From Gemmatimonadota bacterium (GTDB taxonomy: Bacteria > Gemmatimonadota > Gemmatimonadetes > Longimicrobiales > RSA9), in contig JAGTUV010000009.1 in assembly GCA_018224305.1 (NCBI GenBank), positions 1 to 34,107 on the forward strand: 34,107 nucleotides of DNA, read 5' to 3'. This document shows positions 11,689 to 28,319 of this stretch, one piece after another; position 1 is the stretch's first letter; every line of letters starts with the position of its first letter. A model generated the notes under the pieces. That model had not been told where the DNA came from. It worked only from the letters and a program-made list of their open reading frames with translations, and did no database searches. The position numbers were made by a program, and so were the translations under genes.

Positions 11689-12156
11689 TCACGTGGTGGT
11701 GGCCTCGAGTGTGGAAGTGCAGTGCGGGCAGCGCAGCGCCTGAATCGGGATCGTCGTGGCGCAGAAGGGGCACGACCTGTCTGTCGGGGACTCCGGCTCC
11801 ACCTGCTCCTGGCGCCGCAGCTTGTTGATCGCTTTCACGAGCAGGAAGACCGCGAACGCGACGATCAGGAATGCGATGATGTTGTTGATGAACTGGCCGT
11901 AGTTCAGGGTCACCGCACCGGCCGCCTGGGCATCCGCGATGGTCACGTAGGGTGAGGCGGGGTCGCCCTCGCGCAGGATCATGAACAGGTCCTTGAAGTC
12001 GACACCTCCGAGCATCAACCCGACGGGCGGCATGAGCATGTCGTCGACCAGCGACTTCACGATCGTGCCGAATGCGCCGCCGATGATGATGCCGACGGCC
12101 ATGTCGACAACATTGCCCTTTACGGCGAATTCCTTGAACTCCCCCATCATCGCCAT
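11689..12156 (-). CDS. mscL: Large-conductance mechanosensitive channel with C-terminal CxxC...CxxC zinc ribbon
   Basis: [32 protein letters not shown] and [10 protein letters not shown]. Tail CPFC...CPHC. AGGAG RBS before ATG 12156. Confidence 0.95.
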
Positions 12157-12370
12157 CTTCGGCTCCTGAGACCGGGATGCCATGCATCGGACAGGCCAAT
12201 CTGCGGCTGGATCCCGCTCCGGACAAGCCAGGTTCATGGCGCGGCCGACGTCGCGGGCGTGTCTCGGACGTGCCGCGGGTGAGTCCGTCGCGGTGACCTC
12301 GTCCTCAACCACGACGTGCCGCGCGCGAGTAGTCGCGGTGACCCGGGCTTGACCGTACCGTGCCGGTCGG

Positions 12371-13317: not shown

Positions 13318-14160
13318 ATGGCGGCAGTGGTTCTCGACGGCACGGGCCTCGCCCGGCGGCGACTGCCGATGCTGGCTGCGCGCGCAGAAGCCGTGCTCAC
13401 CCGCCGCGGACGCGCTCCCGCTCTTGTCCTCGTCACGTTTGGCGACGACCGCGGGCACGCGCCGCACGTCGCTCGCAAGCAGCGCATGTGCGCCGATGCA
13501 GGCGTGGATCTCATTCCGCTCATCTTCGAGCCCGGTGTCCGGACGCGCGTGGCGCTCGCGCATATGCGTGAGCTGCTGAAGGAGCGTTCGTTCGACGGTG
13601 TCTTCGTGCAGGTTCCCTTTCCGGATGGGATCGACGGCGACTCGCTGGTGTCGGCCGTGCCGGTCGAGCTGGATGTGGACATCATGACGCCGGTCCGCAC
13701 CGCCCGCTACATGAACGGCACCGATGTGCTACCGCCCGTGACCGTGTCGGCAGCCCTGCTCCTGCTGGACGAATACGACATCTCGATCGAGGGTCGGCGC
13801 GGGATCGTGGTTGCGGAGGAGCACCCGTTCTCACTCATGCTGCGCGCAGCGCTCGTCCTGCGCGGCGCAGACATGCGTGCTCCCGTGCATCCGGCAGATC
13901 CCGGCCTGAAGGAGCATGTGCGTGCAGCGGATCTCGTGGTCGTCGCCGCGGGAGTTCCCGGGCTGCTGCATTCCACGATGATCAGGCCGGGAGCCGTCGC
14001 GATCGATGCCGGCTACTTCAACGCCGGTGGTCGCGGCGACATCGATCTCACCGGCGGCATCGACCACCTCGCCGCGATATCGCCCGTGCCCGGGGGCATA
14101 GGGCCCATGACGATTTCGGCACTGCTCGAACGTGTGGTGCTGTTCGCCGAGCAGAACTAG
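13318..14160 (+). CDS. folD: Divergent FolD-family methylene-THF dehydrogenase/cyclohydrolase homolog
   Basis: MAAVVLDG, DGVFVQVPFP, ADLVVVAAG, GAVAIDAG, GDID and SPVPGGIGPMT. The GRSxxVG motif is absent. Confidence 0.8.
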   Translation: MAAVVLDGTGLARRRLPMLAARAEAVLTRRGRAPALVLVTFGDDRGHAPHVARKQRMCADAGVDLIPLIFEPGVRTRVALAHMRELLKERSFDGVFVQVPFPDGIDGDSLVSAVPVELDVDIMTPVRTARYMNGTDVLPPVTVSAALLLLDEYDISIEGRRGIVVAEEHPFSLMLRAALVLRGADMRAPVHPADPGLKEHVRAADLVVVAAGVPGLLHSTMIRPGAVAIDAGYFNAGGRGDIDLTGGIDHLAAISPVPGGIGPMTISALLERVVLFAEQN

Positions 14161-14176
14161 TGGACTGTCTCCAGAG
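14157..14176 (+). repeat. Copy of 20-bp element CTAGTGGACTGTCTCCAGAG overlapping the folD stop
   Basis: 18/20 identical to the reverse complement of 14744-14763. Confidence 0.75.
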
Positions 14177-14257
14177 CAACGTCAGCACCGAGAGATGACT
14201 GGGACGCGCACGCGAACCGCCGCGTACTCATTCCACGTGCCTCCAGTGTGCATCGCG

Positions 14258-14713
14258 TCAGAATCGCTCGCCCTGCGCTTCGCGGAGGTGACTGCCGACC
14301 GGCCGGATGCGCGTCCACATCGCCCAGAAGTACAACGCGGCGCCCGCGATCTGGCCGAGTCCGCCGAGCACTACGATCCATGGCAGAACCGCTACGTCGT
14401 ACCACGCACGCATTGCTTCCGCCACGAATCGGGAGCCGGTGGACACGGCGAGAATCCAGTATGCGGCCTGAATCCGCCCGGGTGAGTAGCGAGTGTCATC
14501 CTTCGGCGCGCGCGGGAACAGCCACAGCGCCACGCCGAAGATCAGAAACATCACGAACCCTACGAACACGGCATGCGCGTGCGCGGACACGAGGTGAGGA
14601 TGCGGCCAGATGCCGAACAGCTCCCGGCGCACGAGCAGCCATCCTCCGAGCGCCAGGCCGGAGAATAGAAACAGAATGCCAGTCTTGATGAATCGCCGGA
14701 CGAGTGTATACAT
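14258..14713 (-). CDS. Small 4-TM heme-copper-oxidase-homology (single-unit HCOH/NnrS-like) membrane protein
   Basis: MYTLVRRFIKTG...SAHAHAVFVGFVMFLIFGVALWLFPR. Four hydrophobic segments. Paralog of 19934-20374. Confidence 0.75.
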   Translation of the reverse strand: MYTLVRRFIKTGILFLFSGLALGGWLLVRRELFGIWPHPHLVSAHAHAVFVGFVMFLIFGVALWLFPRAPKDDTRYSPGRIQAAYWILAVSTGSRFVAEAMRAWYDVAVLPWIVVLGGLGQIAGAALYFWAMWTRIRPVGSHLREAQGERF

Positions 14714-14715
14714 GG

Positions 14716-14763
14716 CTAGTCGACTGTCTCGAATGCCGCGGAACTTTGGAGACAGTCCATTAG
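14716..14763. repeat. 48-bp imperfect inverted-repeat (MITE/REP-like) element with CTAG/CTAA ends
   Basis: CTAGTCGACTGTCTCGAATG ... CTTTGGAGACAGTCCATTAG; the arms are 16/20 complementary. Confidence 0.7.
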
Positions 14764-15176
14764 TCGTCTGCCTTCGCAGCCTGCTGCCCACCCCGACCGG
14801 ACCCGCCCTGAGCACCGGCCTCGAGCGCGACGGTCAGGAGAAACGCTGCACCCGCCTCGGATTGCACCGTGTGCGGCAGGCCCGCGCCGGCCGACAGCAT
14901 CTCACCAGCAGCGACATCGTGAGATTGCCCGCCGATCGTGAAGCGGATCGACCCATCCAGCGGCTGCACCGTGATCGGTCCGTCCGCGCTGTGCTCCGCC
15001 AGCTCTCCGCCCGGCCCGAGCACCACCAGTGTCACACGCAGCGGTCCGTCCTTGAGCAGAGTACGCGCCGAACGGCCGTGCTTCTGAATGGTCGCCGGGT
15101 CCGCAGTACGCTCACGTTCCTCGTGGAGCTGGAACACCATGACATCGCCGGAGAGCGGGCGCTGGATGGAGGGCAT
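14760..15176 (-). CDS. Cupin domain protein
   Basis: GGELAEHSADGPITVQPLDGSIRF and AGEMLSAGAGLPHTV. TGATG coupling to the upstream gene. Confidence 0.85.
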   Translation of the reverse strand: MPSIQRPLSGDVMVFQLHEERERTADPATIQKHGRSARTLLKDGPLRVTLVVLGPGGELAEHSADGPITVQPLDGSIRFTIGGQSHDVAAGEMLSAGAGLPHTVQSEAGAAFLLTVALEAGAQGGSGRGGQQAAKADD

Positions 15177-15433
15177 CAGGACACCTCCGCCGCGTCGGTC
15201 AGTCGAACGACGATCACGCGCCACGTCTCCGGGCCCTGCTCCAGATAATCGAAGCTGAACGCGTCATCGCCACGCGTCGCACGCAGCGTGTAGTACATGC
15301 ACTGCGGATCGTGGTCGACCACGAGCTCCAGCGACTCGCCGATCCCGAGCGATTCATATGCACCCATGATCTGCTCGTAGCGATGCCTTGGCTCGACCGG
15401 CCGGACGTCCAGGCGTATCTGCGTCTTCATCAT
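15176..15433 (-). CDS. DUF2249 domain protein (TusA/SirA-like)
   Basis: LDVRPVEPRHR, LVVDHDP and YLEQGPETWRV. Confidence 0.88.
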   Translation of the reverse strand: MMKTQIRLDVRPVEPRHRYEQIMGAYESLGIGESLELVVDHDPQCMYYTLRATRGDDAFSFDYLEQGPETWRVIVVRLTDAAEVS

Positions 15434-16164
15434 GTGCCTCCAGTTTCAGTTCGGACCGGCAGGCGCACCAGGTCCGGCGCAGCCGCCGTGCTGCCGCAGC
15501 CCCACCCGCCGCGCCGGCCGAGCCACGTCTCCCACGCCACGCGATAGCGCGTCGAGCTCGGTGCCAGCACGAGCGGGCCGTCATATCCCGCGAGCGCGAG
15601 CGTGCCCATCAGCGTTCCGATGCCCCTGCCTTCCTGCATCGAAGTCTCCGGGCCGCCGCCAATCAACCGGATGTACCGCAAAGCCGGTCCCTGCCGCTCC
15701 AGTACGAATTGCGCATGTTCTGAAACGTCGCCGCTGGCGGTATCGATCTCCCATCCGTAATCGAGGCCCGCCGCGTGCGCGGCCGGATGCCAGGTTGCCG
15801 GCTGACCCGTTGCGAGAGCGAGCGCGCGCCCGCCTGCATCGATGATCGCGCGCGCGCGTTCAGCCCGCTGATCGATGCTGCATTCGCACGACACGATAAC
15901 AGGAGCGCCGAGCGCCTGTGACAGCCGCGCGAGCTGCTCTGCATCAGTCGCCGCGTCCGTGCGGTAGCCCGCAATCGTCACGCCTTCTGTTGCGGCGCTC
16001 GCCAGCGCGGCAGCGACGGCACGCGACCAGTCGCCGTCGGCATCGATGCCGTGCCCGTCGCCCGCACGTAGCTCGAGCGCGGGAAGACCTCGCGCCGCGC
16101 ACGCTGCCGCGAGATCGTCGAGTGAAGCGTCCGGCGCAGCGGCGGAGCTCAGTCCCAGCCGCAT
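15430..16164 (-). CDS. Degenerate xylose-isomerase/AP-endonuclease-2-like TIM-barrel protein with C-terminal GWGCGS
   Basis: MRLGLSS...LAAACAARGLPALEL...GHG N-terminus and LALAGYDGPLVL C-terminus. ATG 16164 is coupled by TGATG. Confidence 0.6.
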   Translation of the reverse strand: MRLGLSSAAAPDASLDDLAAACAARGLPALELRAGDGHGIDADGDWSRAVAAALASAATEGVTIAGYRTDAATDAEQLARLSQALGAPVIVSCECSIDQRAERARAIIDAGGRALALATGQPATWHPAAHAAGLDYGWEIDTASGDVSEHAQFVLERQGPALRYIRLIGGGPETSMQEGRGIGTLMGTLALAGYDGPLVLAPSSTRYRVAWETWLGRRGGWGCGSTAAAPDLVRLPVRTETGGT

Positions 16165-16403
16165 CAGGCTGCGGTCCTCGAGATCTGCACGCGCCACACG
16201 GCGGGACCCTGCTCCAGGTACTCCCAGCCGAACTGGCCGGCGTGCTCGAACTCGAACTGGTAGCGCAGCGGTTTCGGATCGTGATCGTTTACCAGTACGA
16301 ACGCCTCTCCCGCCTCGAGCGAGGTGAACGTCTGGAAGATCGTCGGATGCTTCTCGCGCGGCGGAATGACCCGCACGTCGAGAACTCTCTGTGTGTCGCT
16401 CAT
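16164..16403 (-). CDS. DUF2249 domain protein
   Basis: LDVRVIPPREKHPTIF, LVNDHDPKPLRYQF and YLEQGPAVWRV. AAGGAG RBS. Confidence 0.92.
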   Translation of the reverse strand: MSDTQRVLDVRVIPPREKHPTIFQTFTSLEAGEAFVLVNDHDPKPLRYQFEFEHAGQFGWEYLEQGPAVWRVQISRTAA

Positions 16404-16441
16404 GTTACTGCTCCTTCGTTCGAGTTTCAGTTGCTGTGCCG

Positions 16442-17398
16442 TCAGTTGCTGCGCCGGATGAACACACGCACGAGATCCGGCTCCTGCTCCCGTACGTCGT
16501 ACGTGAATCCGCGTTCCTCCAGCATCGGCAGCAGGAACTGCGGCACACGCACATTGATCTGAACGAGCGTCGCTCCCGCCGGCAGCTGCTCGAGCGCGGC
16601 CAGCGTGCGCACCATCGGCTCCGGCGGTTCGAGGTCACGAACGTCGATAATCACCACGTCCTGCTCCGCGTCCGGCGCTGCATCGCCACGAGAAAGGTCG
16701 GGTGCTTCCGGAGAGGGCCCGTCGGCTGGAGCCCGGGCGCCGGCCGCGGGGCGGGCGACCGCGTTACCCCCTGGCTCCTGATCGGGCACCGAGGGCTGGG
16801 CATCGACAGCAGGCGGATGAAACCACACACGCCAGTCGTCGTCCGCCAGTCGCTCGGTCCAGTGCTCGAGACCCTGACGCTTCATGACCGCATAGAGCGG
16901 CACCGGCTCGAAGATCGCCCGCACGCAGAGCACACCACCCGCCGGCACCGTTCGCAGTGCTGCCATGATCAGGCTGAAAGGCTCACGTCCGGCACGCAGT
17001 TCGTCGCGCACGTCCAGCTCGATGACATCCTCGGAAGCGACGCGCTCCAGAGCTTCCGGACGCTTACCCGCATTGCTCGACACCACGTCCCCGTCCTCCT
17101 TCGTGCGTGACTCCACGTTCGCCGGTGCGGCGTGTGACTCCACCTTCGCCGGTGCGGCGCGCGACTCCACGCTCACCGGTGCGCCCGACCCATGCGCGTT
17201 CAGCCGAGCCACGAGCTCCTCCGCATTGACACCCGCCACCCGCGCCGCCTGCTCTACCGTCACGAGCCGCGCCATCACTTTCCTCATTCCTGCATGCCGC
17301 AGTCGCTCAAAGGCCGGCGAGAGCGATACGAACACATCGATTAGCGATTCATCGCGCCCGATCACCGTTGACACTCGGTCCGTACGGGAGATCACCAT
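16442..17398 (-). CDS. DUF1858 + 2x DUF2249 fusion protein
   Basis: N-terminal '[15 protein letters not shown]...[22 protein letters not shown]' (DUF1858-like), then [14 protein letters not shown]...FEPVPLY and [16 protein letters not shown]...RVPQFL. Confidence 0.82.
17107..17183. repeat. 27-bp tandem repeat x~3 (VESxAAPA linker)
   Basis: GACTCCAC cores at 17109, 17136 and 17163. Confidence 0.85.
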
Positions 17399-17688
17399 GC
17401 CCCCTCCTGGATCATCTCCGGATTCCACGCGGGCTCCCACACCAGATGCGGATGGACTTCCTCGACACCGGGCACTGCGGACACCGCGTTAACAATCGCA
17501 CTCGTGATGTGGCGCTCGAGCGGACAACCGGGCGTCGTCAGCGTGTACGTCACCGTCACCGTGCGCTCGAAGACGTTCACGTCGTAGACCAGGCCGAGCG
17601 TCATGATGTCCAACCCGATTTCCGGGTCTATCACGGTTGCCAGTGCGGCGCACACCGCTGCCTCCTGCTCTTCCGCCTGCGGGATCAT
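17392..17688 (-). CDS. Metal-sulfur cluster assembly factor (DUF59/SufT/MIP18)
   Basis: [30 protein letters not shown] and LVWEPAW. ATG 17688 overlaps the upstream stop (ATGA). Confidence 0.93.
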
Positions 17689-18989
17689 GGTCGCGTTCTC
17701 CACAGTTTCAGCATCTGTGCACTCTCGATCACCACGCCCGTCAGCAGCATGAGTGCGCTGACGCGCGCAGCGACAGGGTATCCGGCGACGATCGCCGCAA
17801 TCATTCCGATCGTTCCCAGCACCAGTGCGCTCACCGCCAGCGTCGCTGCGCGCGTCGAGTACAGCTCCGTGACGAGAGGCACGGGCCGCGTGCCCGCGAG
17901 CGGGCCGAAGCGGTGGTACCACACCAGGAATGGCACGATCTTGTAGTAGTGCGCCGCAACGAAGAGGCTGATACCGAGGAGCACGGCGGCCACGTACGCA
18001 GTTGCGACGCGCGCACTCGCGACCGAAAGCAGTACCGGCGTCGACAGCACCAGTGCGAGGGCCAGAACGGACAGTGCCGCGGCGGCGAGGCGCATCCCCG
18101 GATCCAGCGCAGGACGATGGCGGCGTGCATAGAACGATCGGGCCTGCAACAGGAACGCGGCACAGCCCGCCGCGATCAGCACCGCAGGCGTCCAGTAGCT
18201 CACCAGTCGCGGCGCGTGATGCAGGAACGCGAGCACGCCCGTCCCCGTCGCGATCAGCGCCACGGCCGCCTTCGCAAACCGGTCGCCCGCGCCGTGGCTG
18301 AGCAGGAACATCGGCAGCAGGCGATGGCCGACACCGATCATCACCAGCAGTACCCAGCCGGCGATCGCCACGTGCAGGTGCACGCCCAGCGCGGCGACGC
18401 GTCCCGCACCGAGGTAGCCCCAGCGCAGATTGCCCGTAAGCGCCAGGCCGAGAACCAGCGTGATCATCAGAAAGAATGCAGCGCATGCGAGCGCCCACCA
18501 CGTTACGTCGCGTCGCTTCGATGCGTGCAGTGTCGCGGCCAGATTGCCGACGAAGAGCAGGATGCCCGCGCCGAACGTGGCCGCGCCGGCCAGCATCAGA
18601 ACCGGACGGTACAGCACGAGTCCGATCACGAACGCGGCCAGGCCCGGCACGTACAGCGCGAAGCTCGCGTGCGCCAGCCGCACTGAACGGATCGGCTTCC
18701 CCAGCGCCACCGGCAGGAACTGGTACAGCGCGCCCATGATCGATGTCGTGATCCAGCCCAGCGTGAACAGGTGCGTGACACCCGCGACCCGCGGCGACAG
18801 AAACGCGCCGCCCGCCAGGTCGCCCGCGACCAGAACCACGCCCGCGGCACCAGACAGCAGGAACAGCAGCGCGGCAGCGAAGTGCTCGCCCGGCAGGATG
18901 AACGGCGGCGCGTTCGCGCCCGCCATACCGGGCGCCGCTGTCGGCACAGTCTGCGGTTTCGTGCCGGCGCTCCTCGTGCGCACATCCAT
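17685..18989 (-). CDS. ~12-TM heme-copper-oxidase-homology (triple-unit HCOH/NnrS-like) membrane protein
   Basis: Three repeats: [45 protein letters not shown] and [20 protein letters not shown] 18989 is coupled (TAATG) to the regulator. Confidence 0.72.
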
Positions 18990-19720
18990 TACGCCGCTCC
19001 TCTGCGATACGTGCAGGACGCGTCTCCCGCCGGGATGTAGTTCAGACGCGTCAGCCGCTCGCCCATCAGCTCCCTCACGAACGCCAACTCCGCGCGGCAG
19101 GGAACCCGCGTCACGTCCACCACCTCGCGCAGCGGGCAATGACACAGCCGAAGCTCGGGCTGTTCCGCTCCCTCGTGCGCCAGCGCCATGAACCCCAGTT
19201 CGGAGAGGATCCGGGCCGCCTCCTCCGCCCGGGCCGGACCCTCCAGCCCTGCGACCCGCGTCAGCGCGGCGTCACGCCGCTCGGCGATGTACTCGTCGAA
19301 GAACTCCTCGAGCAGCGCTTCATTTCCAGTCGACACCAGGTGCATGACCAGGCCCCGAAGGACCTCGCCTTCACGACGCGGGAACAGCGACTCCGATGCG
19401 GCCGTCAACGCGTACACCACCTCCGGCCGGCCAGGCCCCGAACGCCGCGTGCCCCGCCGCTCCACCAGGCCCTCCGCCGTCAGCGCCTGCAGATGATGCC
19501 GGACCGTCTCGACATTCAGCCTCGCCTCCTCCGACAGCAGCGGGATCGTCGCCGAGCCCCGACGCTTGAGGCTGTTCACCAGCTCCCGCCGCGTCCCGTT
19601 CAGCCCCGGCGCACTCATGCCCGCCGGGCTCGCCGCCGGCACGCTCGGCCCCAGCGCGCCAGCCGCCAGTGCGCTCAGCGCCGCCTGAACAATCTCTTCC
19701 CGGCCGCCGTTGCGGTCCAT
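18989..19720 (-). CDS. SufR-like HTH transcriptional regulator with Fe-S ligand motif
   Basis: HTH ([15 protein letters not shown]...[12 protein letters not shown]). C-terminal CP-x11-C-x2-E...C ([17 protein letters not shown]...GDASCTY). GGAGG RBS. Confidence 0.85.
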
Positions 19721-19767
19721 TCACCCTCCGTTGTCGTACGGGTCAGACGATCGCCGTACTGCCTGCC

Positions 19768-19793
19768 TTATTCAAGACGATGTTCTTGATAAT
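19768..19793. promoter_or_regulatory. Palindromic operator TCAAGA-N6-TCTTGA in AT-rich flanks
   Basis: Perfect 6-bp arms at 19772-19777 and 19784-19789 in the divergent intergenic region. Confidence 0.55.
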
Positions 19794-19795
19794 TA

Positions 19796-19814
19796 TGTGG
19801 GGAGTTTCCCCACA
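19796..19814. promoter_or_regulatory. Palindromic operator TGTGGGGA-GTT-TCCCCACA
   Basis: Perfect 8-bp arms. A related site lies at 28424-28445. Confidence 0.6.
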
Positions 19815-19933
19815 ATGCCGTCCTCCGATCCACTACATCAGAATCCGCTCGCGCCCGACGGATGCCGATTCACCTATTTCCTACCTTTATGTCGTGAATC
19901 GCCGGACGTCGGATCGAGACAACGACAGGACCC

Positions 19934-20374
19934 ATGGAACCATTCGTCAGGAACTTCATCCGATCGAGCCTGCTGTGGCTGGGCGGCGGCGTATTGCTCG
20001 GGGTGTGGATGGCGGTGTCACCGCAGGCGATCCTCTACCGTCCTGCCCACGTTCATGCGAACCTGCTCGGCTTCGTGAGCATGATGATCTTCGGCGTCGC
20101 ATACCACGTGATTCCGCGATTCACAGGCAGCCCGTTGCGCAGCCGCAGGGTTGCGGTGCTGCATCTGTGGGTGGCGAATGTCGGCCTCGTGGGCCTGGTT
20201 GGCGGCTGGCTGCTGCGGCCATCGATGTGGGAAGCGGGCACGGCAGCGGTGATGACGGGTGGGGTCGTGAGCGCCACCGGCTCGTTCCTGTTCATCGGCA
20301 ACCTGTGGCTGACGCTCGGTCCGGTCCGACGGGCAGCGCGCCCTGGCGTCCTGCACTCTGGACCTGCCGCGTGA
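19934..20374 (+). CDS. Small 4-TM single-unit HCOH/NnrS-like membrane protein
   Basis: MEPFVRNFIRSS...PAHVHANLLGFVSMMIFGVAYHVIPRFTG. AGGA RBS. Paralog of 14258-14713. Confidence 0.78.
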   Translation: MEPFVRNFIRSSLLWLGGGVLLGVWMAVSPQAILYRPAHVHANLLGFVSMMIFGVAYHVIPRFTGSPLRSRRVAVLHLWVANVGLVGLVGGWLLRPSMWEAGTAAVMTGGVVSATGSFLFIGNLWLTLGPVRRAARPGVLHSGPAA

Positions 20375-20441
20375 CGCGGGTCGCACTGTCCTGGCGGTCG
20401 CGCACTGGATGGTGGCGGACTGAACCCCCATTGTATACGAC

Positions 20442-20657
20442 ATGACGGAGTCGATGATGAGCAGAGCAACTGTGATGCAGATGACAGTCAATGAAACGAT
20501 CCGCCGGTTCCCGGCGACGGTCGAGATCTTCAACCGATACGGCATCGATGCATGCTGCGGCGGCGCGGCGTCGGTGGCGGAGGCGGCGGTGCGCGATGGC
20601 GCCGATCCGGTAAAGCTACAGGGCGAGCTGTTGAGCGTAATCGGAGCGGCGGCGTGA
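20442..20657 (+). CDS. Stand-alone DUF542/ScdA_N domain (N-terminal domain of RIC/YtfE Fe-S repair proteins)
   Basis: TVNETIRRFPATVEIFNRYGIDACCGG matches the IDxCCGG motif. Confidence 0.88.
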   Translation: MTESMMSRATVMQMTVNETIRRFPATVEIFNRYGIDACCGGAASVAEAAVRDGADPVKLQGELLSVIGAAA

Positions 20658-20965
20658 ACGCGCTCCCGATCGGACCGGGTGCGCGGGACGACCGTCCGGC
20701 GACCGCGCTCCTGTACGACCATCCGAACGCCCGGATCGTCGCCTTTCACCTGCTGCCCGGGCAGCAGGTCGCCGAGCATCGCAGCACTTCGACCGTGACC
20801 GTGCATGTGACCGAGGGCTCCGGCGTATTCCGCGGATCGGAGTCCGAGTCGCGGCTGGAGACGGGACAGATCGCGGTGTTCGAGCCGGACGAGGTGCACT
20901 CCATCGATGCCGGCGCGGAGCCGCTCCGCTTTGTGGCGATCATCACCCCGCGACCGGGCGGCTGA
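20654..20965 (+). CDS. Cupin domain protein
   Basis: GTGA overlap with the ScdA_N gene. PGQQVAEHRS...VTEGSG...PDEVHSI. Confidence 0.85.
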   Translation: MNALPIGPGARDDRPATALLYDHPNARIVAFHLLPGQQVAEHRSTSTVTVHVTEGSGVFRGSESESRLETGQIAVFEPDEVHSIDAGAEPLRFVAIITPRPGG

Positions 20966-20971
20966 ACGTTC

Positions 20972-22078
20972 ATGGCCACACTCTCCCCTGCGGCACCGGT
21001 TGCGGTTCGACCGGACTGGCGGCTCGACATCCCCGAAGAGAAGCGGCGTCCCATCCGCGTCTGGCTGTGGAGCATCGCCGCGCTGACGTTCGGTGTGATG
21101 GTCGTCGGAGGAATCACGCGCCTGACGCTGTCCGGGCTGTCGATCGTTTCCTGGGACCCGCTCTTCGGCGTGATACCGCCGCTCAGCGACGCGCAGTGGC
21201 AGGCGACGTTCGAAGCGTACAGGCAGTTCCCGGACTACGACTGGCGAACCGGCATGACACTCGCCGAGTTCAAGTTCATCTTCTTCTGGGAGTATCTGCA
21301 CCGCCTGCTTGCAAGGCTGATCGGATTCGCGTTCCTGATCCCGTTCGTCTGGTTCCTGGCGCGCGGCTACTTCAACCGTGCGCTTACGGGTCGTGCGCTC
21401 GCACTGTTTGCGCTGGGCGGGATGCAGGGCGTCATGGGCTGGTTCATGGTGATGAGCGGACTCGTCGACCGCCCGAGCGTCAGTCATTACCGCCTCGCCG
21501 CACACCTGAGTCTGGCCTTCCTCATCTTCGGCTACGCGCTCTGGCTCGCGCGCGACCTCCGCCTGACGCGGGCACGCGCTGTGGTGGACCCGGGCGTCCA
21601 TCGAATGATGTTACGCGGTCTGGCGCTGCTCGGCGCTGTGACGAGCGTGCAGATCGTATGGGGTGCGTTCGTCGCGGGGCTGCGTGCCGGCAAGTTCTAT
21701 CCGACGTTCCCGCTGATGGGCGGCAGCCTGGTCCCGGCGGAACTGCTTCGTCTCGATCCGTTTACGCGCAACTTCGTCGAGAACCCCGTCGCAGTGCAGT
21801 GGATGCACCGCGTGCTTGGCACGCTGCTGCTCGTCGTCGCAGTCGTCTTTGTCGCGCGCGTGCTCCGTTCCGCTGCTGATGCGCTGTCGCGCCGGCTCGG
21901 CGTCATCGTGCTGAGCCTCATCTCCGTGCAGTATCTGCTCGGTGTTCTGACGCTCGTGTATCTGGTGCCGATCAGCCTCGGTGTGATTCACCAGGGCGTC
22001 GCGCTGGTGATCTTCGGTGCATGGCTGTGGTGGCTGCACCACGTGCGGAACCTCGATGTGCAGGGAAGGGCAGCATGA
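20972..22078 (+). CDS. ctaA: Heme A synthase (COX15/CtaA type 2)
   Basis: VGGITRLTLSGLSI, FWEYLHRLLAR, WFMVMSGL, RLAAHL, QWMHR and HQGVA. Confidence 0.95.
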   Translation: MATLSPAAPVAVRPDWRLDIPEEKRRPIRVWLWSIAALTFGVMVVGGITRLTLSGLSIVSWDPLFGVIPPLSDAQWQATFEAYRQFPDYDWRTGMTLAEFKFIFFWEYLHRLLARLIGFAFLIPFVWFLARGYFNRALTGRALALFALGGMQGVMGWFMVMSGLVDRPSVSHYRLAAHLSLAFLIFGYALWLARDLRLTRARAVVDPGVHRMMLRGLALLGAVTSVQIVWGAFVAGLRAGKFYPTFPLMGGSLVPAELLRLDPFTRNFVENPVAVQWMHRVLGTLLLVVAVVFVARVLRSAADALSRRLGVIVLSLISVQYLLGVLTLVYLVPISLGVIHQGVALVIFGAWLWWLHHVRNLDVQGRAA

Positions 22079-23436
22079 AAGCGGAACGCACGCCGGATCT
22101 CGCCACCTCCACTCCGTCTGAGGGCAGGCCGGATCTCACCGGCGCAGGTGCGCCATCCGGCAGGCCGGATCTCGCCGGGATCGATTTCGCGCAGTCACCG
22201 TTCCTCGTCATCTGGGAGGTCACGCGCGCATGCGACCTCGCCTGCCTGCACTGCCGCGCGGAAGCGGTGACGAATCGCAATCCGCTGGAGCTGTCGACGG
22301 AGCAGGGGAAGCGCCTCATGGACGACGTGCGCCGGTTCGGCCGGCCTCTGTTCGTCCTCACGGGCGGCGATCCGCTGAAGCGTCCCGACGTTGTCGAACT
22401 CGTCGAGTACGGCGCTTCGATCGGGCTGCGCATGGCGATGACTCCATCCGGCACGCCGCTGATGACCGAACCCGTGCTCCGGGACCTGAAGGCGGCAGGA
22501 CTCTCGCGCCTGGCGGTGAGTCTGGATGGGTCGAGCGCAGACATCCATGACGCGTTCCGGGGGGTCGAGGGGTCGTGGGCCTGGACCATCCGGATGCTGG
22601 AGGTCGCGCGCGAGATCGGGCTCACGACACAGGTCAACACGACGGTCAGCATGCACAACCTCGACGATTTCGACGCGCTGTGCGACCTGATGGTCCAGCT
22701 CGGCATCACGCTCTGGAGCGTGTTCTTCCTCGTGCCGACCGGTCGTGCGAAGTCCGGCGACGTCGCGAGTGCCGACGAATTCGAGAGCGTGTTCCATCGC
22801 ATGTATGACCTGTCACAGACAGCGCCGTTCGACATCAAGAGCACGGCCGGACCGCAGTATCGGCGTGTGATCCTCCAGCGCCAGGTCGCTGAACGCCGCG
22901 CGGGCGATCGCACGGCCGCTGTAACTCCGCTGACGGCAGGTGTCGGCTTTTCGCTCGCTGACGGCGTCGGCCGGGCCAAGGGCGTGAACGACGGCGATGG
23001 CTTCGTCTTCGTGAGCCACGTGGGCGCAATATACCCTTCCGGGTTTCTCCCGCTCGCGGCCGGCAACGTGCGCAAGGACGACATCGTGGATGTGTACCGC
23101 AATGCGCCGCTGTTCGTGGAGTTGCGCGACCGCACACGGCTGAAGGGGAAATGCGGCGTCTGCGAGTACCGCGATGTGTGTGGTGGAAGCCGGGCTCGCG
23201 CGTATGCCGTGTCCGGTGACTACATGGAGTCCGAGCCATTCTGTGCGCACGTGCCAGCACGCTGGCAGCGCATGGTCGATGCGGGCGAGGCCGAGCCGGT
23301 GGCGGAGTACTTCGAACGCCGCGGGCTGACTGATCGGTCGCTGCCGGTCATTGATGACGGTGTTCCGGCGCAGGGACGGGCGGCGCGCGGTCAACCGCCG
23401 GCTGGTGGTCAGATGCCGTCCGCGACGGCGACTTGA
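22075..23436 (+). CDS. Radical SAM/SPASM protein, TIGR04053-like (AhbD/NirJ-related)
   Basis: WEVTRACDLACLHCRA, LTGGDP and FFLVPTGR. SPASM region KGKCGVCEYRDVCGGSRARA...PFC. ATGA overlap with ctaA. Confidence 0.88.
   Translation: MKAERTPDLATSTPSEGRPDLTGAGAPSGRPDLAGIDFAQSPFLVIWEVTRACDLACLHCRAEAVTNRNPLELSTEQGKRLMDDVRRFGRPLFVLTGGDPLKRPDVVELVEYGASIGLRMAMTPSGTPLMTEPVLRDLKAAGLSRLAVSLDGSSADIHDAFRGVEGSWAWTIRMLEVAREIGLTTQVNTTVSMHNLDDFDALCDLMVQLGITLWSVFFLVPTGRAKSGDVASADEFESVFHRMYDLSQTAPFDIKSTAGPQYRRVILQRQVAERRAGDRTAAVTPLTAGVGFSLADGVGRAKGVNDGDGFVFVSHVGAIYPSGFLPLAAGNVRKDDIVDVYRNAPLFVELRDRTRLKGKCGVCEYRDVCGGSRARAYAVSGDYMESEPFCAHVPARWQRMVDAGEAEPVAEYFERRGLTDRSLPVIDDGVPAQGRAARGQPPAGGQMPSATAT
22092..22178 (+). 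repeat. 36-bp-period imperfect repeat (xPDL x3) in the radical SAM N-terminus
   Basis: GCCGGATCTC cores at 22092, 22128 and 22164. Confidence 0.8.
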
Positions 23437-23451
23437 CGGCGGCCTTTCACG

Positions 23452-23946
23452 ATGTCCTTCTACTTCATCAACGTGACGGTGCACGTGTTCGCCGCGCTGT
23501 TCTGGCTCGGCGGTATGTTCTTCCTCGCCGTAGTCGGTGCCCCGGTCCTGCGGGCCGTCGAGCCGCCGGAACTGCGCGCGATGCTGTTCCGCCGGCTCGG
23601 CGAACAGTTCCGTACGGCTGGCTGGATCGCCATCGTCATTCTCCTGGTCACGGGAACGCTCAATCTGTATTTCCGCGGCATGCTGACGCTCGATGTTCTG
23701 GCGAGCGGGGATTACTGGAGTTCACGATACGGCCGGTCGCTCGCGTGGAAGGTCGGTGCCGTGACTGCGATGCTGATCGTTCAGGCAGTGCATGACTTCG
23801 GAGTCGGCCCTGCCGCAGCCCGCCTGACGCCCGGCACACCGGAGGCGCTGGCGATACGCCGGCGTGCGGCGCTGCTGGCCAGATTCAGTGCCGTGCTCGG
23901 CATCATCGTGGTCATTGCAGCCGTCAGGCTCGCACGCGGCGGGTGA
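23452..23946 (+). CDS. CopD/DUF4149-like 4-TM membrane protein
   Basis: VHVFAALFWLGGMFF, LLVTG, LAWKV and AVHDF. Confidence 0.72.
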   Translation: MSFYFINVTVHVFAALFWLGGMFFLAVVGAPVLRAVEPPELRAMLFRRLGEQFRTAGWIAIVILLVTGTLNLYFRGMLTLDVLASGDYWSSRYGRSLAWKVGAVTAMLIVQAVHDFGVGPAAARLTPGTPEALAIRRRAALLARFSAVLGIIVVIAAVRLARGG

Positions 23947-24000
23947 CGCGCACGTCGAGGAGCGAGGGGCGATCCTGTGCCGGCGACCGGACCGCGTGGA

Positions 24001-24870
24001 TCAGAAGGGAAGCAGCAGGTCCGCCACCAGTGCACCCAGCACCAGCGGCAGCACGAGCAGTGAGCTGAAGAAGAGCCGTCGTGCGGGGAGGCGTTCCGGC
24101 TCGCGCACGAACCGCCAAGCAAAGAGTACGTATCCTGCTGCCGTCGTGCCGGCGATGGCCGCGTACAGTGCACCGATCGGTGCCGAGAGGCCGAGCATCA
24201 CAACGCACACGAGCATCGCGAACGCGTACATGAACGAGACCCGGGCGCTCGACCGTCCCGTGGGTTCCACGATGTTCAGCAGCACACAGCCCGCTCGCTC
24301 ATAGTCCTCCCTGCCCAGACAGCCGATGGCCAGAAAGTGTGGTATCTGCCACATGAACAGCACCCCGGTCAGTGCCAGTGCCGCTCCGTTGATCGGCACG
24401 CCCGCAGCCGTCCATCCCGCCAGCACGGGTAGTGCACCGGGGATCGCGCCCGCGAGGGTGCAGAAAGCGGTGCGGCGCTTGAGCGGTGTGTACAGATAGA
24501 CGTAACTGACGTGGCTCAGCACGAGAAATACCGTCGCGGGCCAGGGCAGCAGGCTGACCGAGATGACGAACCCCACGGCGCTGAGGCTCCAGCCGAAGAG
24601 GCCGGCGTTGCGCGGACTGATCATGCCGGACGGGATGGGCCGTCCGGCGGTGCGGCGCATCCGTGCATCGCCCGTACGCTCGGCCAGGTGATTCAACGCT
24701 GCTGCCCCCCCGGACATGAGCATGGTCGCGAGCAATGCAATGGCGAGTCGCACGGGCTGGCCCCACCCGCCCGTCGCCGTGATGAAGCCCGCGGCAGCGC
24801 TCGTGCCGATGAACAGCGTGATGCCGGGCTTCGTCAGCTCGTAGTACCCGCTCAGTACGCGCGCCGACAT
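24001..24870 (-). CDS. ctaB: Protoheme IX farnesyltransferase (heme O synthase)
   Basis: ELTKPGI, DARMRRTAGRPIPSG, YTPLKRRT, GAIPGALP and WQIPHF. Confidence 0.95.
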   Translation of the reverse strand: MSARVLSGYYELTKPGITLFIGTSAAAGFITATGGWGQPVRLAIALLATMLMSGGAAALNHLAERTGDARMRRTAGRPIPSGMISPRNAGLFGWSLSAVGFVISVSLLPWPATVFLVLSHVSYVYLYTPLKRRTAFCTLAGAIPGALPVLAGWTAAGVPINGAALALTGVLFMWQIPHFLAIGCLGREDYERAGCVLLNIVEPTGRSSARVSFMYAFAMLVCVVMLGLSAPIGALYAAIAGTTAAGYVLFAWRFVREPERLPARRLFFSSLLVLPLVLGALVADLLLPF

Positions 24871-25772
24871 CAGAGACGACCCACGAGGTTAACGATCGCC
24901 GCCGAGCCCCCCGTAGTCGCGTACGCGATCCGGCCATCCCGATCGATGATGTAGACCAGTGACGGATGTGTGATCTCGCCCGTGGTCATATCTCTCACAC
25001 GCGGGACCTCCCATGCGTCGAGCGCGCCCTCCACATCATCGACCGATCCACCGAGCACCCATGCATCGGCCGCCGGAAGTCCCCACGACTTCGCCATCGC
25101 CGGGAGCCGCGAGGGCGTATCGCGCCACGGATCCAGCGTGACGACCAGCACCGTGACGTCCATGCCGCCGGCCGCCAGATCGTACTGCGCCGTGAGCACG
25201 TGCTTCACGACGAGCGGGCATATCGTCTCGCAGTGTGCGTACGCGAACGTCACGAGCACCGGTGCTCCGCGGAACTGCGCCAGCTCCCGCGTAACACCAT
25301 CGTGCGCCTGTAGTGCGAGAGCCGGCGCACGACGGTCGAGTCTCGGGTAGGTGGATGGAGGAAGCTCGCCGTCCGCATCCGGTATGAATGCCAGTGCGCG
25401 CGCCTGCTGCACTCTCGCGCCCGCACCAATGACCAGCACCATGCAGCCGATCGCCAGTGCGCCCAGTGTTGCCGACAGAGCCCGCGACGTACGGGCACGT
25501 TCCGCGAGCCGGCGCACGCCGCCCCACCACGCGATCAGCAGAATGATGAGCATGCCGAGCGGGCCGAAGATCAGGCCGATCCAGCCGCCCGCATCCGGCA
25601 GTCCGCTCTCGGTCACGCCGAAGCACACGTAGCGTGTGCGCTCGAGCCACACGGGCCCATCCTGCACCGGCCAGAAGGCCAGTGCCCACCACGCACTCGT
25701 AATGACGAACAGTGCGATCAGTCCGGTCATCACGATTCGCGCTTCCCGGTCCGGTGCAGGCGGGTGCGTCAT
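24870..25772 (-). CDS. SCO family CuA chaperone with 3-TM N-terminal extension
   Basis: FAYAHCETICP (CxxxC), TLDPWRDTP and ITHPSLVYIID. N-terminal TM block with RYVCFG. TGATG coupling on both sides. Confidence 0.88.
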   Translation of the reverse strand: MTHPPAPDREARIVMTGLIALFVITSAWWALAFWPVQDGPVWLERTRYVCFGVTESGLPDAGGWIGLIFGPLGMLIILLIAWWGGVRRLAERARTSRALSATLGALAIGCMVLVIGAGARVQQARALAFIPDADGELPPSTYPRLDRRAPALALQAHDGVTRELAQFRGAPVLVTFAYAHCETICPLVVKHVLTAQYDLAAGGMDVTVLVVTLDPWRDTPSRLPAMAKSWGLPAADAWVLGGSVDDVEGALDAWEVPRVRDMTTGEITHPSLVYIIDRDGRIAYATTGGSAAIVNLVGRL

Positions 25773-27526: not shown

Positions 27527-28143
27527 CAGTTGACCTCCAGCGCCTGCGCGGCTTCGCCGGGCATTGTTCCGTCCTCATTCGTCACGAGTACCTTGCCCAG
27601 CATCAGGTGATGGCCTACACCGCAGAATTCGTTACAGATCACCCCGAAGTCGCCCGCTTCGGTCGGCACGATCTTCAGTCCATAATCGTATCCGGGGACG
27701 ATCTGGAAATTGATGTTGACGGGATACAGCGAGAAGCCGTGGTTCACGTCCGTGGACGACAGATGCAGCGTGTACTCGGAGCCCTTCCGCAGCTTGAGTA
27801 TCGGGTACCAGCTCCACATGCGTCCGAGCATGTACACGTCGCTGCCCGGAGGCGGTTCGACAACCGGGAACCCGTTCATGGTGCCCACCTGGTAGTCCGC
27901 TACGAACTGATTGACGCGCGCCTCGAACGCGGCTGGCTCCACCCTGCTTCGGATGCCCGACGCGTTCTGTCCGCCCTTCCAGTGCCAGAGCGGCATCATC
28001 GCGAACAGCACCATGCACCACGCGAACGCGATCCCGAACCACACCTTCTCGGAACGGTGTGCGGGCACCCACCAGCGCCCCTTCGGCGAGACCATGCCGG
28101 TGTTCATTGGGCGCCGGTCTCCGTCCTGCGCCGGGGCGGTCAT
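27526..28143 (-). CDS. Heme-copper oxidoreductase subunit II (CuA)
   Basis: DVNHGF and CNEFCGVGHHLM CuA motif. One TM helix, as in ba3-type subunit II. ATG 28143 overlaps the upstream stop (ATGA). Confidence 0.93.
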   Translation of the reverse strand: MTAPAQDGDRRPMNTGMVSPKGRWWVPAHRSEKVWFGIAFAWCMVLFAMMPLWHWKGGQNASGIRSRVEPAAFEARVNQFVADYQVGTMNGFPVVEPPPGSDVYMLGRMWSWYPILKLRKGSEYTLHLSSTDVNHGFSLYPVNINFQIVPGYDYGLKIVPTEAGDFGVICNEFCGVGHHLMLGKVLVTNEDGTMPGEAAQALEVN

Positions 28144-28319
28144 GGCAGCTCCGCCGTCGGCATGCTCGTGATCTCCCACAGGCCCCAGCCCGTGTAGATC
28201 ACGCCCATGATCACAATCCCCGCGATCATCAGAAGCAGCCAGTTGTCGTAGAGCCGCTGGCCGAGCGGCTCCTTCGCTGGGTCGTTGTCGTATGCATCAG
28301 GTGTGCGATCACTGCTCAT
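28140..28319 (-). CDS. Small single-TM subunit (subunit IIa-like), 59 aa
   Basis: GGAG RBS. QRLYDNWLLLMIAGIVIMGVIYTGWGLWEI. First gene of the oxidoreductase operon. Confidence 0.75.
   Translation of the reverse strand: MSSDRTPDAYDNDPAKEPLGQRLYDNWLLLMIAGIVIMGVIYTGWGLWEITSMPTAELP

Follow-up and report, generated by a model that had tools for sequence, protein, structure and literature searches.

A Drp/HCO-homology module with a SufR-like regulator and a candidate operator beside an eNOR-type oxidoreductase in Gemmatimonadota

What kind of system is encoded where genes for DUF2249 proteins, oxidase-like membrane proteins, cupins and haem enzymes diverge from one short intergenic region, next to a putative nitric oxide (NO) reductase and without the core genes of Fe-S cluster assembly? 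The question is raised by contig JAGTUV010000009.1 of a Gemmatimonadota bacterium (assembly GCA_018224305.1), of which the whole stretch of 34,107 nucleotides analysed here is called the window; the genes concerned lie at 14258-23946. An earlier note, made from the sequence of the window, had taken them for an uncharacterised, SufR-like-regulated module that builds or repairs iron, haem and copper centres for the adjacent NO reductase.

Judged by its domains and gene order, the minus-strand operon of this locus is the Gemmatimonadota form of a widespread module in which Drp-like DUF2249 proteins are combined with a protein homologous to heme-copper oxidoreductases (HCO). Most likely, the module is an accessory system and not the catalyst of a main pathway, and we give an even chance to the proposal that it protects, re-metallates or matures the iron centres (Fe-S, non-haem iron, haem) of NO-exposed enzymes. 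In outline, the module and its parts are already known: the Drp pair has been in print since 2018 and the HCO-homology (HCOH) families since 2014. The label "uncharacterised" is thus too broad for the parts and holds for the set, which is biochemically unstudied. New are a putative SufR-like regulator with a defined candidate operator in place of Crp/Fnr; gene fusions that point to a complex of the membrane protein with DUF59, DUF2249 and ScdA_N domains; a predicted pair of ScdA_N protein and cupin; and the combination with haem and copper genes beside eNOR.

The conserved minus operon and its membrane protein

Genes were called with a codon log-odds caller trained on the Pfam-supported genes of the window, and the products were then scanned against Pfam and NCBIfam. 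This yields 15 genes in 14258-23946, close to the roughly 14 given before, and every domain listed in the earlier note was recovered. The genes form two divergent operons, nine on the minus strand and six on the plus strand, which are separated by an intergenic region of 213 bp (19721-19933). The tight packing noted earlier is also found: at eight of the 13 intra-operon junctions, neighbouring genes share 1-34 nt, and at the remaining five they are separated by gaps of 6-67 nt. The minus operon and the divergent region comprise the following features.

19768-19793, no strand: candidate operator, a 26-bp palindrome TTATTCAAGACGATGTTCTTGATAAT found by palindrome scan
18989-19720, minus strand: REG, a SufR-like (COG2345 / ArnR-type) regulator and the first gene of the minus operon (HTH_5, TIGR02702)
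17685-18989, minus strand: MEM, a membrane protein of 434 aa with 12 transmembrane (TM) helices, called in preference to the longest open reading frame (ORF) of 486 aa; no Pfam family
17392-17703, minus strand: DUF59 protein, FeS_assembly_P / SufT-like (PF01883, 70.6 bits)
16442-17398, minus strand: DrpB-like protein with DUF1858 and two DUF2249 domains of TusA-fold (Pfam)
16164-16403, minus strand: DrpA-like protein with a single DUF2249 domain (PF10006, 111.6 bits)
15430-16197, minus strand: U255, a xylose-isomerase-like TIM barrel of 255 aa (placed by the ESM Atlas)
15176-15433, minus strand: third DUF2249 protein (PF10006, 75.9 bits)
14760-15176, minus strand: cupin A (Cupin_2, 28.5 bits)
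14258-14713, minus strand: 4-TM single-unit HCO-homology protein (partial COX1 match, below cut-off)

All four DUF2249 domains counted in the earlier note are present, and they are the only ones in the assembly, which has 3.57 Mb in 436 contigs and is 95% complete. The closest relatives of the window mark the genome as Longimicrobiales-like. The reported lack of Suf and Isc core genes likewise stands: no sufBCDS or iscSU gene was found in the region, and SufB and SufD are encoded on another contig.

The gene arrangement is not due to chance, because its core order recurs in 80 loci from other genomes. These loci, collected with MEM as the query, come mostly from Gemmatimonadota, with a few from Gaiellales, Thermoleophilia, Myxococcota and Acidobacteria. 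Searched by tblastn, the 80 loci contain homologues of the DUF59 gene (77), the DrpB-like gene (75), the DrpA-like gene (64), REG (57), the TIM-barrel gene (42-46) and cupin A (31), and clustering of their ORFs returns the recurrent order REG-(Mrp)-MEM-DUF59-DrpB-DUF2249-TIM-DUF2249-cupin-(4-TM). The DUF59 gene follows MEM in 74-77 of the loci; the DrpB-like gene is found in 73-75, and its DUF1858 domain in 30 of 73. Pfam scans add further neighbours, namely a DUF59-ParA/NUBPL Fe-S carrier (29 loci), full-length RIC consisting of ScdA_N and hemerythrin (13), a two-domain copper oxidase of NirK size (10), eNOR (7), hemerythrin (6), Rrf2 (6) and a second, Tyr-less HCO (5).

The second HCO stands beside the module in L026, L035, L043, L048 and L071 (e.g., L071:5951-7441), where it is accompanied by subunit II, SCO1 and a 263-aa protein. 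In its sequence G-H-M/V-Y/F-I-N, asparagine takes the place of the cross-link tyrosine, and the enzyme may represent another nitric oxide reductase (NOR) family. Asparagine at this position is typical of sNOR and bNOR. In another Gemmatimonadota family, modules are headed by a Crp/Fnr regulator and have an Nramp transporter and a 4-TM oxidase-like protein nearby (L163, L164). One of them, in genome G016 (L163, G016:C2), has Crp-MEM-DUF2249-NirK in one operon, and the other, in G040 (L164, G040:C3), has Crp-MEM-DrpB followed by a Caa3_CtaG copper-insertion factor.

Several partners of MEM belong to families with published roles. DUF59 proteins act in Fe-S protein maturation according to published abstracts. 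The DUF59 protein of the window carries C60 within a TTxGCP motif that is conserved in at least 90% of 75 sequences; it reaches 88 on the SUF-associated equivalog model TIGR02945, against a cut-off of 143.4, and its gene does not lie beside suf genes. The Drp-like proteins have the same architectures as those of Thermus, where DrpA is a single DUF2249 domain and DrpB consists of DUF1858 and two DUF2249 domains (Chahlafi et al. 2018, PMC6282519), so that the link drawn in the earlier note is upheld. The Thermus drpAB operon is reported to lie downstream of narCGHJIKT and to be induced under denitrifying conditions, and in a drpAB double mutant the nitrate reductase protein is formed but shows little activity, which is described as a maturation defect (PMC6282519). 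In Haloferax, all four DUF2249 genes are reported to be induced under denitrification, with log2FC values of 3.2-8.7 (PMC11218638). The DrpA-like protein of the window has a conserved DHDP motif and, to judge from its sequence, no signal peptide. A search of solved structures left the DUF2249 protein unmatched, and the DrpB profile matched only the DUF1858 entry 2fi0_A. U255 has no match in Pfam or NCBIfam; in the ESM Atlas, both features and structure group it with TIM barrels of the AP_endonuc_2 type and with a cluster of DUF2249-bearing members. In cupin A, H62 and H102 are conserved in 33 sequences.

MEM, the query used to collect the 80 loci, matches no Pfam family at E <= 0.01, and NnrS (PF05940) is not matched either. 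An AlphaFold2 model built from a 58-sequence alignment has 12 helices, a predicted local distance difference test score (pLDDT) of 94.3 and a predicted template-modelling score (pTM) of 0.91. Its best Foldseek matches are the catalytic subunits of cbb3, bo3, aa3 and ba3 oxidases and of cNOR, with E values of 7e-7 and weaker and identities of 10-16%; for the top entries CcoN, CyoB and COX1, the template-modelling score by query is at most 0.73 (CcoN, 0.73). Four histidines are invariant, H73 in TM2, H204 and H206 in TM6, and H232, and three are nearly so, H36 in TM1 and H257 and H258 in the TM7-8 loop. By hhalign, H73 is aligned with the low-spin haem ligand H80 of eNOR. A canonical HCO or NOR is recognised by six histidines, one each in TM2 and TM6, an HH pair in TM7 and H-x-H in TM10, and MEM does not satisfy this pattern. 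Since it has no conserved histidine in TM10 and no conserved HH pair in TM7, the canonical binuclear centre must be absent. MEM probably binds haem, and a haem site of different geometry is plausible.

The two 4-TM proteins of the locus connect MEM with the oxidases. The protein at 14258-14713 covers positions 310-391 of the COX1 profile with 24.5 bits, below the cut-off of 34.8, and the one at 19934-20374, in which H39 and H41 are conserved, covers positions 316-397 with 34.3 bits against the same cut-off. Their H-x-H motif aligns with H395-F-H397 in helix X of eNOR, and the 4-TM family is placed by hhalign onto repeat 1 of MEM at 93% and onto repeat 2 at 75% probability. A direct hhalign comparison of the MEM and eNOR alignments gives a probability of only 7.7%, and the homology of MEM to oxidases therefore rests on the fold, on the bridge provided by the 4-TM proteins and on those MEM homologues that exceed the Pfam COX1 cut-off. 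On the strength of the model, MEM is a copper-less HCO-homology protein of three 4-TM units with the fold of oxidase subunit I. With MEM and the two 4-TM proteins, the three HCOH proteins proposed earlier are accounted for. The MEM family comprises 541 representatives at E <= 1e-30 among 1.84 billion.

Natural fusions suggest that these proteins work together. Among nine unusually long MEM homologues that were scanned, three (P0123, P0126, P0144) carry a C-terminal DUF59 domain and one carries DUF2249 and ScdA_N domains; in addition, a DrpA-like domain is fused to the C-terminus of DrpB in 21 of 73 loci. The fusions are evidence that MEM, DUF59, DUF2249 and ScdA_N domains act as one complex. 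Complex prediction for MEM and DrpB gave a score of 0.47 (best control 0.01) with a contact agreement of at least 77% and a partner pLDDT of at least 65. Of 80 solved complexes, 58 attained the same mark, as did 2 of 110 mismatched pairs; at scores of 0.60 or less, it was attained by only 7 of the 80 solved complexes and by both passing mismatches. The prediction lends weak support to a MEM-DrpB complex; taken alone, such a result is likelier to be false than true, and the fusions make the complex more probable from the outset. The missing signal peptide of the DrpA-like protein, together with the fusions, favours a complex on the cytoplasmic side of MEM over a sensor in the periplasm.

A SufR-like regulator and its candidate operator

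REG matches TIGR02702 from end to end with 42.2 bits, far below the SufR equivalog cut-off of 178.8, and HTH_5 with 29.4 bits; it is the sole SufR-like gene detected in the assembly. A search of solved structures with REG matched no SufR-type entry. The marks of the COG2345 family described for M. tuberculosis SufR are an RRH motif and a central GRP AT-hook, and the cluster ligands are C179, C192 and C220, with E195 at Cys2+3 (cryo-EM preprint, bioRxiv 10.64898/2025.12.26.696629). REG shows the winged helix-turn-helix (wHTH) motif R-x-H, with R74 conserved in 63 and H76 in 60 of 64 homologues, and the GRP AT-hook, in which G97 and P99 are kept in 64/64 and R98 in 58/64. The cysteines C195, C208 and C236 are each present in 64/64 homologues and E211 in 56/64, and the ligand spacing C-X12-C-X2-E-X24-C is the same as in the M. 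tuberculosis protein. The only other characterised COG2345 member, ArnR of C. glutamicum, represses narKGHJI and hmp; it carries a [4Fe-4S] cluster and no longer binds DNA in the presence of NO (PMC12343034). Because it carries all published COG2345 marks, REG is, as far as sequence can tell, a SufR-like, ArnR-type Fe-S regulator and not the suf repressor itself. None of the 80 module loci contains suf genes.

The candidate operator emerged from an unbiased scan upstream of REG in related loci, in which any 5-nt inverted repeat with a spacing of 0-9 nt was admitted. The palindrome TCAAG-N8-CTTGA stood out, with 19 sequences, and this core lies at 19772-19789 in the window, between the two operons. 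In 1.31 Mb (the 80 loci and the window), the exact core occurs 34 times, and all 34 copies are located at the start of the REG operon or in a divergent region shared with other genes; the divergent partners are NirK, ScdA_N, the 4-TM protein and an HCO subunit II gene. The genome itself has a single exact copy, inside the window, and a reversed control pattern occurs in 1-5 copies per 3.2-4.3-Mb genome. A 26-bp weight matrix, ATTRTCAAGG-N6-CCTTGAYAAT, finds 52 sites, of which 50 are intergenic. A site is present in 49 of 59 REG-bearing loci and in none of 22 loci without REG, in a comparison where the matrix was trained on the loci that it scored and where many of the loci without REG are incomplete or come from lineages with another regulator. 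Despite a G+C content of 65% in genome and window, the flanks of the operator are A/T-rich, which fits the AT-hook recognition mode described for the COG2345 family (bioRxiv 10.64898/2025.12.26.696629). We infer that REG binds this site and, because the candidate operator is shared by both operons, it likely controls both. The regulation of divergent operons by a SufR-like protein, as the earlier note had it, is thus backed by the published marks of REG and by the shared site.

In the search of five near-complete relatives, G021 and G380 have their best site immediately ahead of the MEM operon, and none of the five has an operator-like site near sufB. The 3.5-kb contig that carries NirK in the genome has no operator site at up to 3 mismatches. 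An operator-like site with one mismatch in G040 precedes a MerR/B12-binding regulator unrelated to the module and was judged a chance occurrence. A further palindrome, TGTGGGGA-N3-TCCCCACA, was rejected as a family-wide operator because it is kept only in the closest relatives. In the window it forms the perfect inverted repeat TGTGGGGA-GTT-TCCCCACA at 19796-19814, 7 bp from the operator; similar repeats are found only in closest relatives such as L001, L005 and L023, and the element may serve as another protein-binding site or form a hairpin in RNA. A promoter consensus scan of 14000-24100 found no promoter-like sites, and the seven terminator-like sites in the same interval, with 4.1 expected, are uninformative.

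Links to nitrite and NO enzymes and the proposed role of the module

The genes that follow the plus operon encode the adjacent oxidoreductase and some of its partners.

24001-24870, minus strand: CtaB, heme O synthase, beyond the end of the plus operon and outside 14258-23946 (TIGR01473, 223 bits, cut-off 210.3)
24870-25787, minus strand: SCO1/SenC copper chaperone (PF02630, 78.9 bits)
25772-27526, minus strand: eNOR-type HCO subunit I (COX1, 219.7 bits)
27526-28179, minus strand: eNOR subunit II, a CuA-type cupredoxin (COX2, 22.3 bits, cut-off 22)

Subunit II also scores 45.6 bits on CoxB (TIGR02866), under the cut-off of that model. Subunit I contains H241-S-S-Q-Q245, invariant in 8/8 sequences, where oxygen reductases have H-x-x-x-Y, and it keeps the other metal ligands H80, H290, H291, H395 and H397. 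Glutamine at the position of the cross-link tyrosine is reported as diagnostic of eNOR (PMC8756737), and by this residue the adjacent oxidoreductase is identified as an eNOR. The genome also encodes NirK, above the curated cut-off and on another contig. No NarG was found in it (best match 21 bits; Nap/NapA was not searched for), and no Sec-type NosZ scored above its cut-off (TAT-type NosZ was not searched for). With NirK and eNOR but neither NarG nor Sec-type NosZ, the organism looks like one that converts nitrite to N2O.

Co-occurrence was examined from both sides. Among 401 Gemmatimonadota genomes, 85 have MEM, 133 a NirK-like protein (E <= 1e-50) and 99 eNOR, where only 50 of the 133 NirK-like proteins score above the curated cut-off and the tally includes the unpublished genome G157. 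NirK-like proteins occur in 54 of 85 MEM-bearing and 79 of 316 other genomes (odds ratio 5.2), and eNOR in 32 of 85 and 67 of 316 (odds ratio 2.2); since the genomes are related and the tests ignore phylogeny, these ratios make the link look stronger than it is. Their direction is nevertheless clear: the module accompanies NO and the reduction of nitrite generally, and NirK more than eNOR. The co-occurrence with NO enzymes that the earlier note had expected is therefore seen, whereas its proposal of a module that serves the adjacent NO reductase specifically is not supported. In a second set of 80 loci, centred on eNOR subunit I homologues of at least 66% identity, MEM, DUF59 and DrpB were found in only three, the closest relatives of the genome (L081, L084, L088); restricted to eNOR loci at least 15 kb long, Drp/HCOH genes occur in 3 of 53. 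The usual partners in this set are subunit II (77 loci), a 59-aa ORF (72), a cytochrome b/2x[4Fe-4S]/FlpD-like fusion (72), SCO1 (70), a 188-aa protein (68) and Rrf2 (47), followed by CtaB (10), the CopD-like protein (10), CtaA (8) and the radical SAM protein (6).

Some of these partners are present in the window. The 59-aa ORF, a candidate small subunit, lies just upstream of the subunit II gene (28140-28319, minus strand). Divergent from the eNOR operon, 28563-30074 (plus strand) encodes a 503-aa protein that joins a cytochrome b N-terminal domain to two [4Fe-4S] ferredoxin motifs and an FlpD-like domain, followed by the gene of the 188-aa protein (30071-30637, plus strand); together, the two may form a dedicated electron-input module for this eNOR clade. 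Downstream of the fusion, 30651-32123 (plus strand) encodes a 490-aa nitronate-monooxygenase-like protein, which is near eNOR in only two of the 80 loci. In L045 and L047 (~7.3-12 kb), eNOR-SCO1-MEM-DUF59-DrpB-cupin run in the same direction, and the eNOR operon apparently includes the module.

The plus operon combines a protein pair reminiscent of iron-centre repair with genes of haem and copper metabolism.

19934-20374, plus strand: 4-TM single-unit HCO-homology protein, the first gene of the plus operon (partial COX1 match, below cut-off)
20442-20657, plus strand: stand-alone ScdA_N protein of 71 aa (PF04405, 50.4 bits)
20654-20965, plus strand: cupin B, translationally coupled to the ScdA_N gene (Cupin_2, 29.4 bits)
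20972-22078, plus strand: CtaA, heme A synthase (COX15-CtaA, 337.5 bits)
22075-23436, plus strand: radical SAM/SPASM protein of the TIGR04053 family (472.6 bits, cut-off 395)
23452-23946, plus strand: CopD-like / DUF4149 4-TM protein (CopD 41.2, DUF4149 36.5 bits)

The ScdA_N protein has a conserved C38-C39-G40 motif and reaches 33.8 on the TIGR03652 model, against a cut-off of 204.7. Its gene is divergent from REG in at least 8 loci, and in 10 of 12 loci the cupin gene comes next. The 12 loci with a stand-alone ScdA_N gene and the 13 with full RIC have no locus in common. In cupin B, H42, E80 and H82 are conserved, and the pair may be an analogue of RIC in which a His/Glu/His cupin replaces the di-iron hemerythrin domain. 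On the AhbD model TIGR04545, whose cut-off is 500, the radical SAM protein reaches 355.2, and a literature search on its own family, TIGR04053, found no paper. The genome has a ChdC-type gene, which makes coproheme a likely intermediate that an AhbD-like enzyme could use. The radical SAM protein may be an O2-independent decarboxylase for haem b, a sensible enzyme at low O2. The CopD-like protein has conserved H11 and H114. For eNOR, a variant of haem a has been reported as cofactor; eNOR operons often contain CtaA, and ctaA/ctaB are eNOR neighbours in Rhodothermus marinus (Murali et al. 2024, PMC11214002). The presence of CtaA, and of CtaB next to it, agrees with the need of eNOR for haem a. 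Plausibly, only the genes for CtaA, the AhbD-like radical SAM protein and the CopD-like protein, together with CtaB and SCO1, fit the supply of eNOR cofactors.

From these elements a mechanism can be proposed. Cluster-loaded REG would sit on the palindrome and repress both operons, and NO produced by NirK at low O2, or oxidative loss of the cluster, would free the DNA and switch both operons on. Release of DNA upon cluster loss or nitrosylation has been described for SufR and ArnR (bioRxiv 10.64898/2025.12.26.696629; PMC12343034). MEM would act as a membrane platform that assembles with the DUF59 and DUF2249 proteins at the cytoplasmic face. With the help of the ScdA_N protein, the TIM-barrel protein and both cupins, it would keep NO-exposed iron centres functional. 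Finally, eNOR would be provisioned by CtaA (haem a), the AhbD-like enzyme (O2-independent haem b) and the CopD-like protein. Gene content, folds, conserved residues, synteny, co-occurrence, the distribution of the operator and the natural fusions are observations of this analysis; from them we infer that REG binds DNA, which signal it senses, which cofactors MEM contains and what the module does biochemically.

Several observations weigh against the view that the module maintains iron centres of NO-exposed enzymes, besides the limits already attached to the weight matrix, the odds ratios and the MEM-DrpB prediction. Neither a NirK-like protein nor eNOR is present in 20 of 85 MEM-bearing genomes, and NirK, eNOR or another HCO lies within the fetched flanks of only 19 of 80 module loci. 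The exact operator motif was not found upstream of the module in G016, G029 and G040, and in G016 and G040 a Crp/Fnr regulator stands ahead of MEM in place of REG. The sufB gene of the genome begins mid-gene at a contig end and its suf promoter is unassembled, so that REG could also control suf in this genome. The sequencing runs listed for the region comprise two DNA runs from a single study of sediment metagenomes and no RNA run. Lastly, DrpA and DrpB of Thermus were interpreted by their authors mainly as nitrate sensors, with DrpA in the periplasm (PMC6282519).

This last interpretation leads to one of two alternatives that we regard as improbable though worth weighing, namely that the Drp-like proteins, perhaps with MEM as a membrane sensor, detect nitrate, nitrite or NO and modulate the transcription of N-oxide respiration genes. 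In Thermus, expression of DnrS, DnrT and nitrate reductase is reported to rise when DrpA or DrpB is lost, and induction to become independent of nitrate when both are (PMC6282519); the Haloferax authors suggested a sensor role as well (PMC11218638). However, the same Thermus study reports an additional maturation defect (PMC6282519), and with no NarG in the genome (21 bits; NapA not searched) a nitrate-reductase sensor would be without a target. The module already carries its own Fe-S sensor regulator, or Crp/Fnr in other lineages, and in Pfam the Drp-like proteins have no kinase, receiver or DNA-binding domain. A DrpA that is devoid of a signal peptide and fused to cytoplasmic DrpB in 21/73 loci fits a periplasmic sensor poorly, and the constant partners DUF59, Mrp and RIC are Fe-S assembly or repair families.

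We are similarly doubtful that MEM, with or without the 4-TM proteins, is itself an NnrS-like haem enzyme or carrier for NO or iron-nitrosyl that the soluble partners merely assist. The complete HCO subunit I fold and the four invariant histidines of MEM speak for catalysis or detoxification of this kind, and so does the NirK gene that shares an operon with MEM in G016. Yet the binuclear-centre ligands are absent, the conserved histidines being located in TM1, TM2, TM6 and the TM6-7 loop; the core operon encodes no electron-input subunit (CuA or cytochrome c), the genome already has eNOR, and MEM is not matched by Pfam NnrS.

Maintenance of iron centres could also take a bolder form, which we hold to be unlikely to about the same degree as the two preceding alternatives: a membrane machine independent of Suf and Isc, in which MEM, as a haem-binding descendant of respiratory oxidases, captures iron, haem or nitrosyl-iron at the membrane and passes it on to DUF2249 carriers of TusA-fold and to DUF59, which rebuild the centres, and in which REG represents a new NO-sensing branch of the SufR-like regulators that has its own operator and switches the machine on. 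If this were true, the reductases of nitrite, NO and nitrate would have their haem, Fe-S and non-haem-iron centres rebuilt, and a new maintenance pathway would set the amount of active denitrification enzyme and hence the N2O formed per cell.

A dedicated assembly line, in which all of the ~15 genes build the iron, haem and copper centres of the adjacent eNOR, is far less probable. It is favoured by direct adjacency in the window and in three independent assemblies of relatives (L081, L084, L088), by L045 and L047, where MEM-DUF59-DrpB-cupin come straight after SCO1 in the eNOR operon, and by the published occurrence of CtaA and CtaB near eNOR genes (PMC11214002). But Drp/HCOH genes are present in only 3/80 eNOR loci, 53 of 85 MEM genomes have no eNOR while 67 eNOR genomes have no MEM, and the module is also found beside NirK, beside another HCO or beside none of these. 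Least probable, by a small step, is a REG and palindrome that belong to a regulon for Fe-S homeostasis in general and are not specially linked to N-oxides, since REG, although the only SufR-like gene found and accompanied by the general Fe-S factors DUF59 and Mrp in a genome whose suf promoter is unassembled, reaches only 42 on TIGR02702 against 178.8, no suf gene occurs in 80 loci, no site lies near sufB in five near-complete relatives, and the operator precedes NirK, RIC or HCO genes in several loci.

The module recurs beside nitrite and NO reductases in several phyla. As loss of drp leaves an inactive nitrate reductase in Thermus, it may decide how much active denitrification enzyme a cell has, an effect that bears on N2O emissions. 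REG and its 26-bp candidate operator offer a testable handle and extend the regulator family beyond suf and nar/hmp, and the ScdA_N protein with its cupin is a candidate RIC analogue that has the cupin in the place of hemerythrin.

Upstream of 14258, the window contains housekeeping genes such as folD, mscL and cysS. The gene at 9469-11370 (minus strand) encodes a 633-aa fusion of a glucosamine-6-phosphate isomerase/6-phosphogluconolactonase domain with a PIG-L deacetylase domain, and the MscL channel encoded at 11689-12183 (minus strand) has a zinc-ribbon-like C-terminal tail with UPF0547 and DUF2089 matches below the cut-offs.

Comparison with known systems

Pei and co-workers reportedly described, in 2014, a set of HCO-homology families that includes NnrS, many of them being predicted to act in denitrification or NO detoxification; most of the three-unit families are said to retain two histidines. 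We know of no purified member of the family of oxidase-like membrane proteins to which MEM belongs. The HCO-homology reference is cited in the Haloferax paper, which agrees in outline (PMC11218638). MEM resembles these families in its 12 TM helices, its three 4-TM units, the oxidase fold and the small number of histidines; the independent 4-TM proteins of the window resemble TM9-12, and the genomic context is one of denitrification and NO. It differs in having four invariant histidines rather than the two ascribed to most three-unit families, and from NnrS in the missing Pfam match.

With SufR and ArnR, REG shares the wHTH R-x-H motif, the GRP AT-hook, the three-cysteine spacing, the glutamate at Cys2+3 and a palindromic site with A/T-rich flanks at its locus. 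ArnR is the closer parallel in that it senses NO and controls N-oxide genes. In contrast to SufR, REG does not stand beside suf and scores under the SufR equivalog cut-off, and it differs from both in its own operator sequence and in its putative targets, the Drp/HCOH operon and the operon with RIC-like and haem genes.

The DrpAB system of Thermus has the same domain architectures, encoded in adjacent genes, and a tie to N-oxide respiration; the likeness is judged by domain architecture, the Thermus control genome having given no PF10006 match. In the window, the gene order is reversed, and the pair is embedded in an operon of nine genes, which also encode DUF59, a cupin, a TIM barrel and membrane proteins resembling oxidases. 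A SufR-like regulator stands in place of DnrS/DnrT, and the pair does not lie downstream of a nitrate reductase operon, as the window has no nar genes.

The likeness to RIC/YtfE/ScdA proteins lies in the ScdA_N domain with its conserved Cys-Cys-Gly motif and in the full RIC genes that occupy the equivalent position in 13 related loci. The window pair differs from them in that it lacks the hemerythrin di-iron domain and that a separate cupin follows. For the radical SAM protein, AhbD is the nearest characterised relative, and both are radical SAM/SPASM proteins, but the window protein falls into the sister family TIGR04053 and under the AhbD cut-off. The eNOR of the window, finally, resembles that of R. 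marinus in the glutamine at the tyrosine site, the CuA-type subunit II and the nearby CtaA/CtaB, while its neighbourhood adds the Drp/HCOH module, the AhbD-like radical SAM protein and the CopD-like protein.

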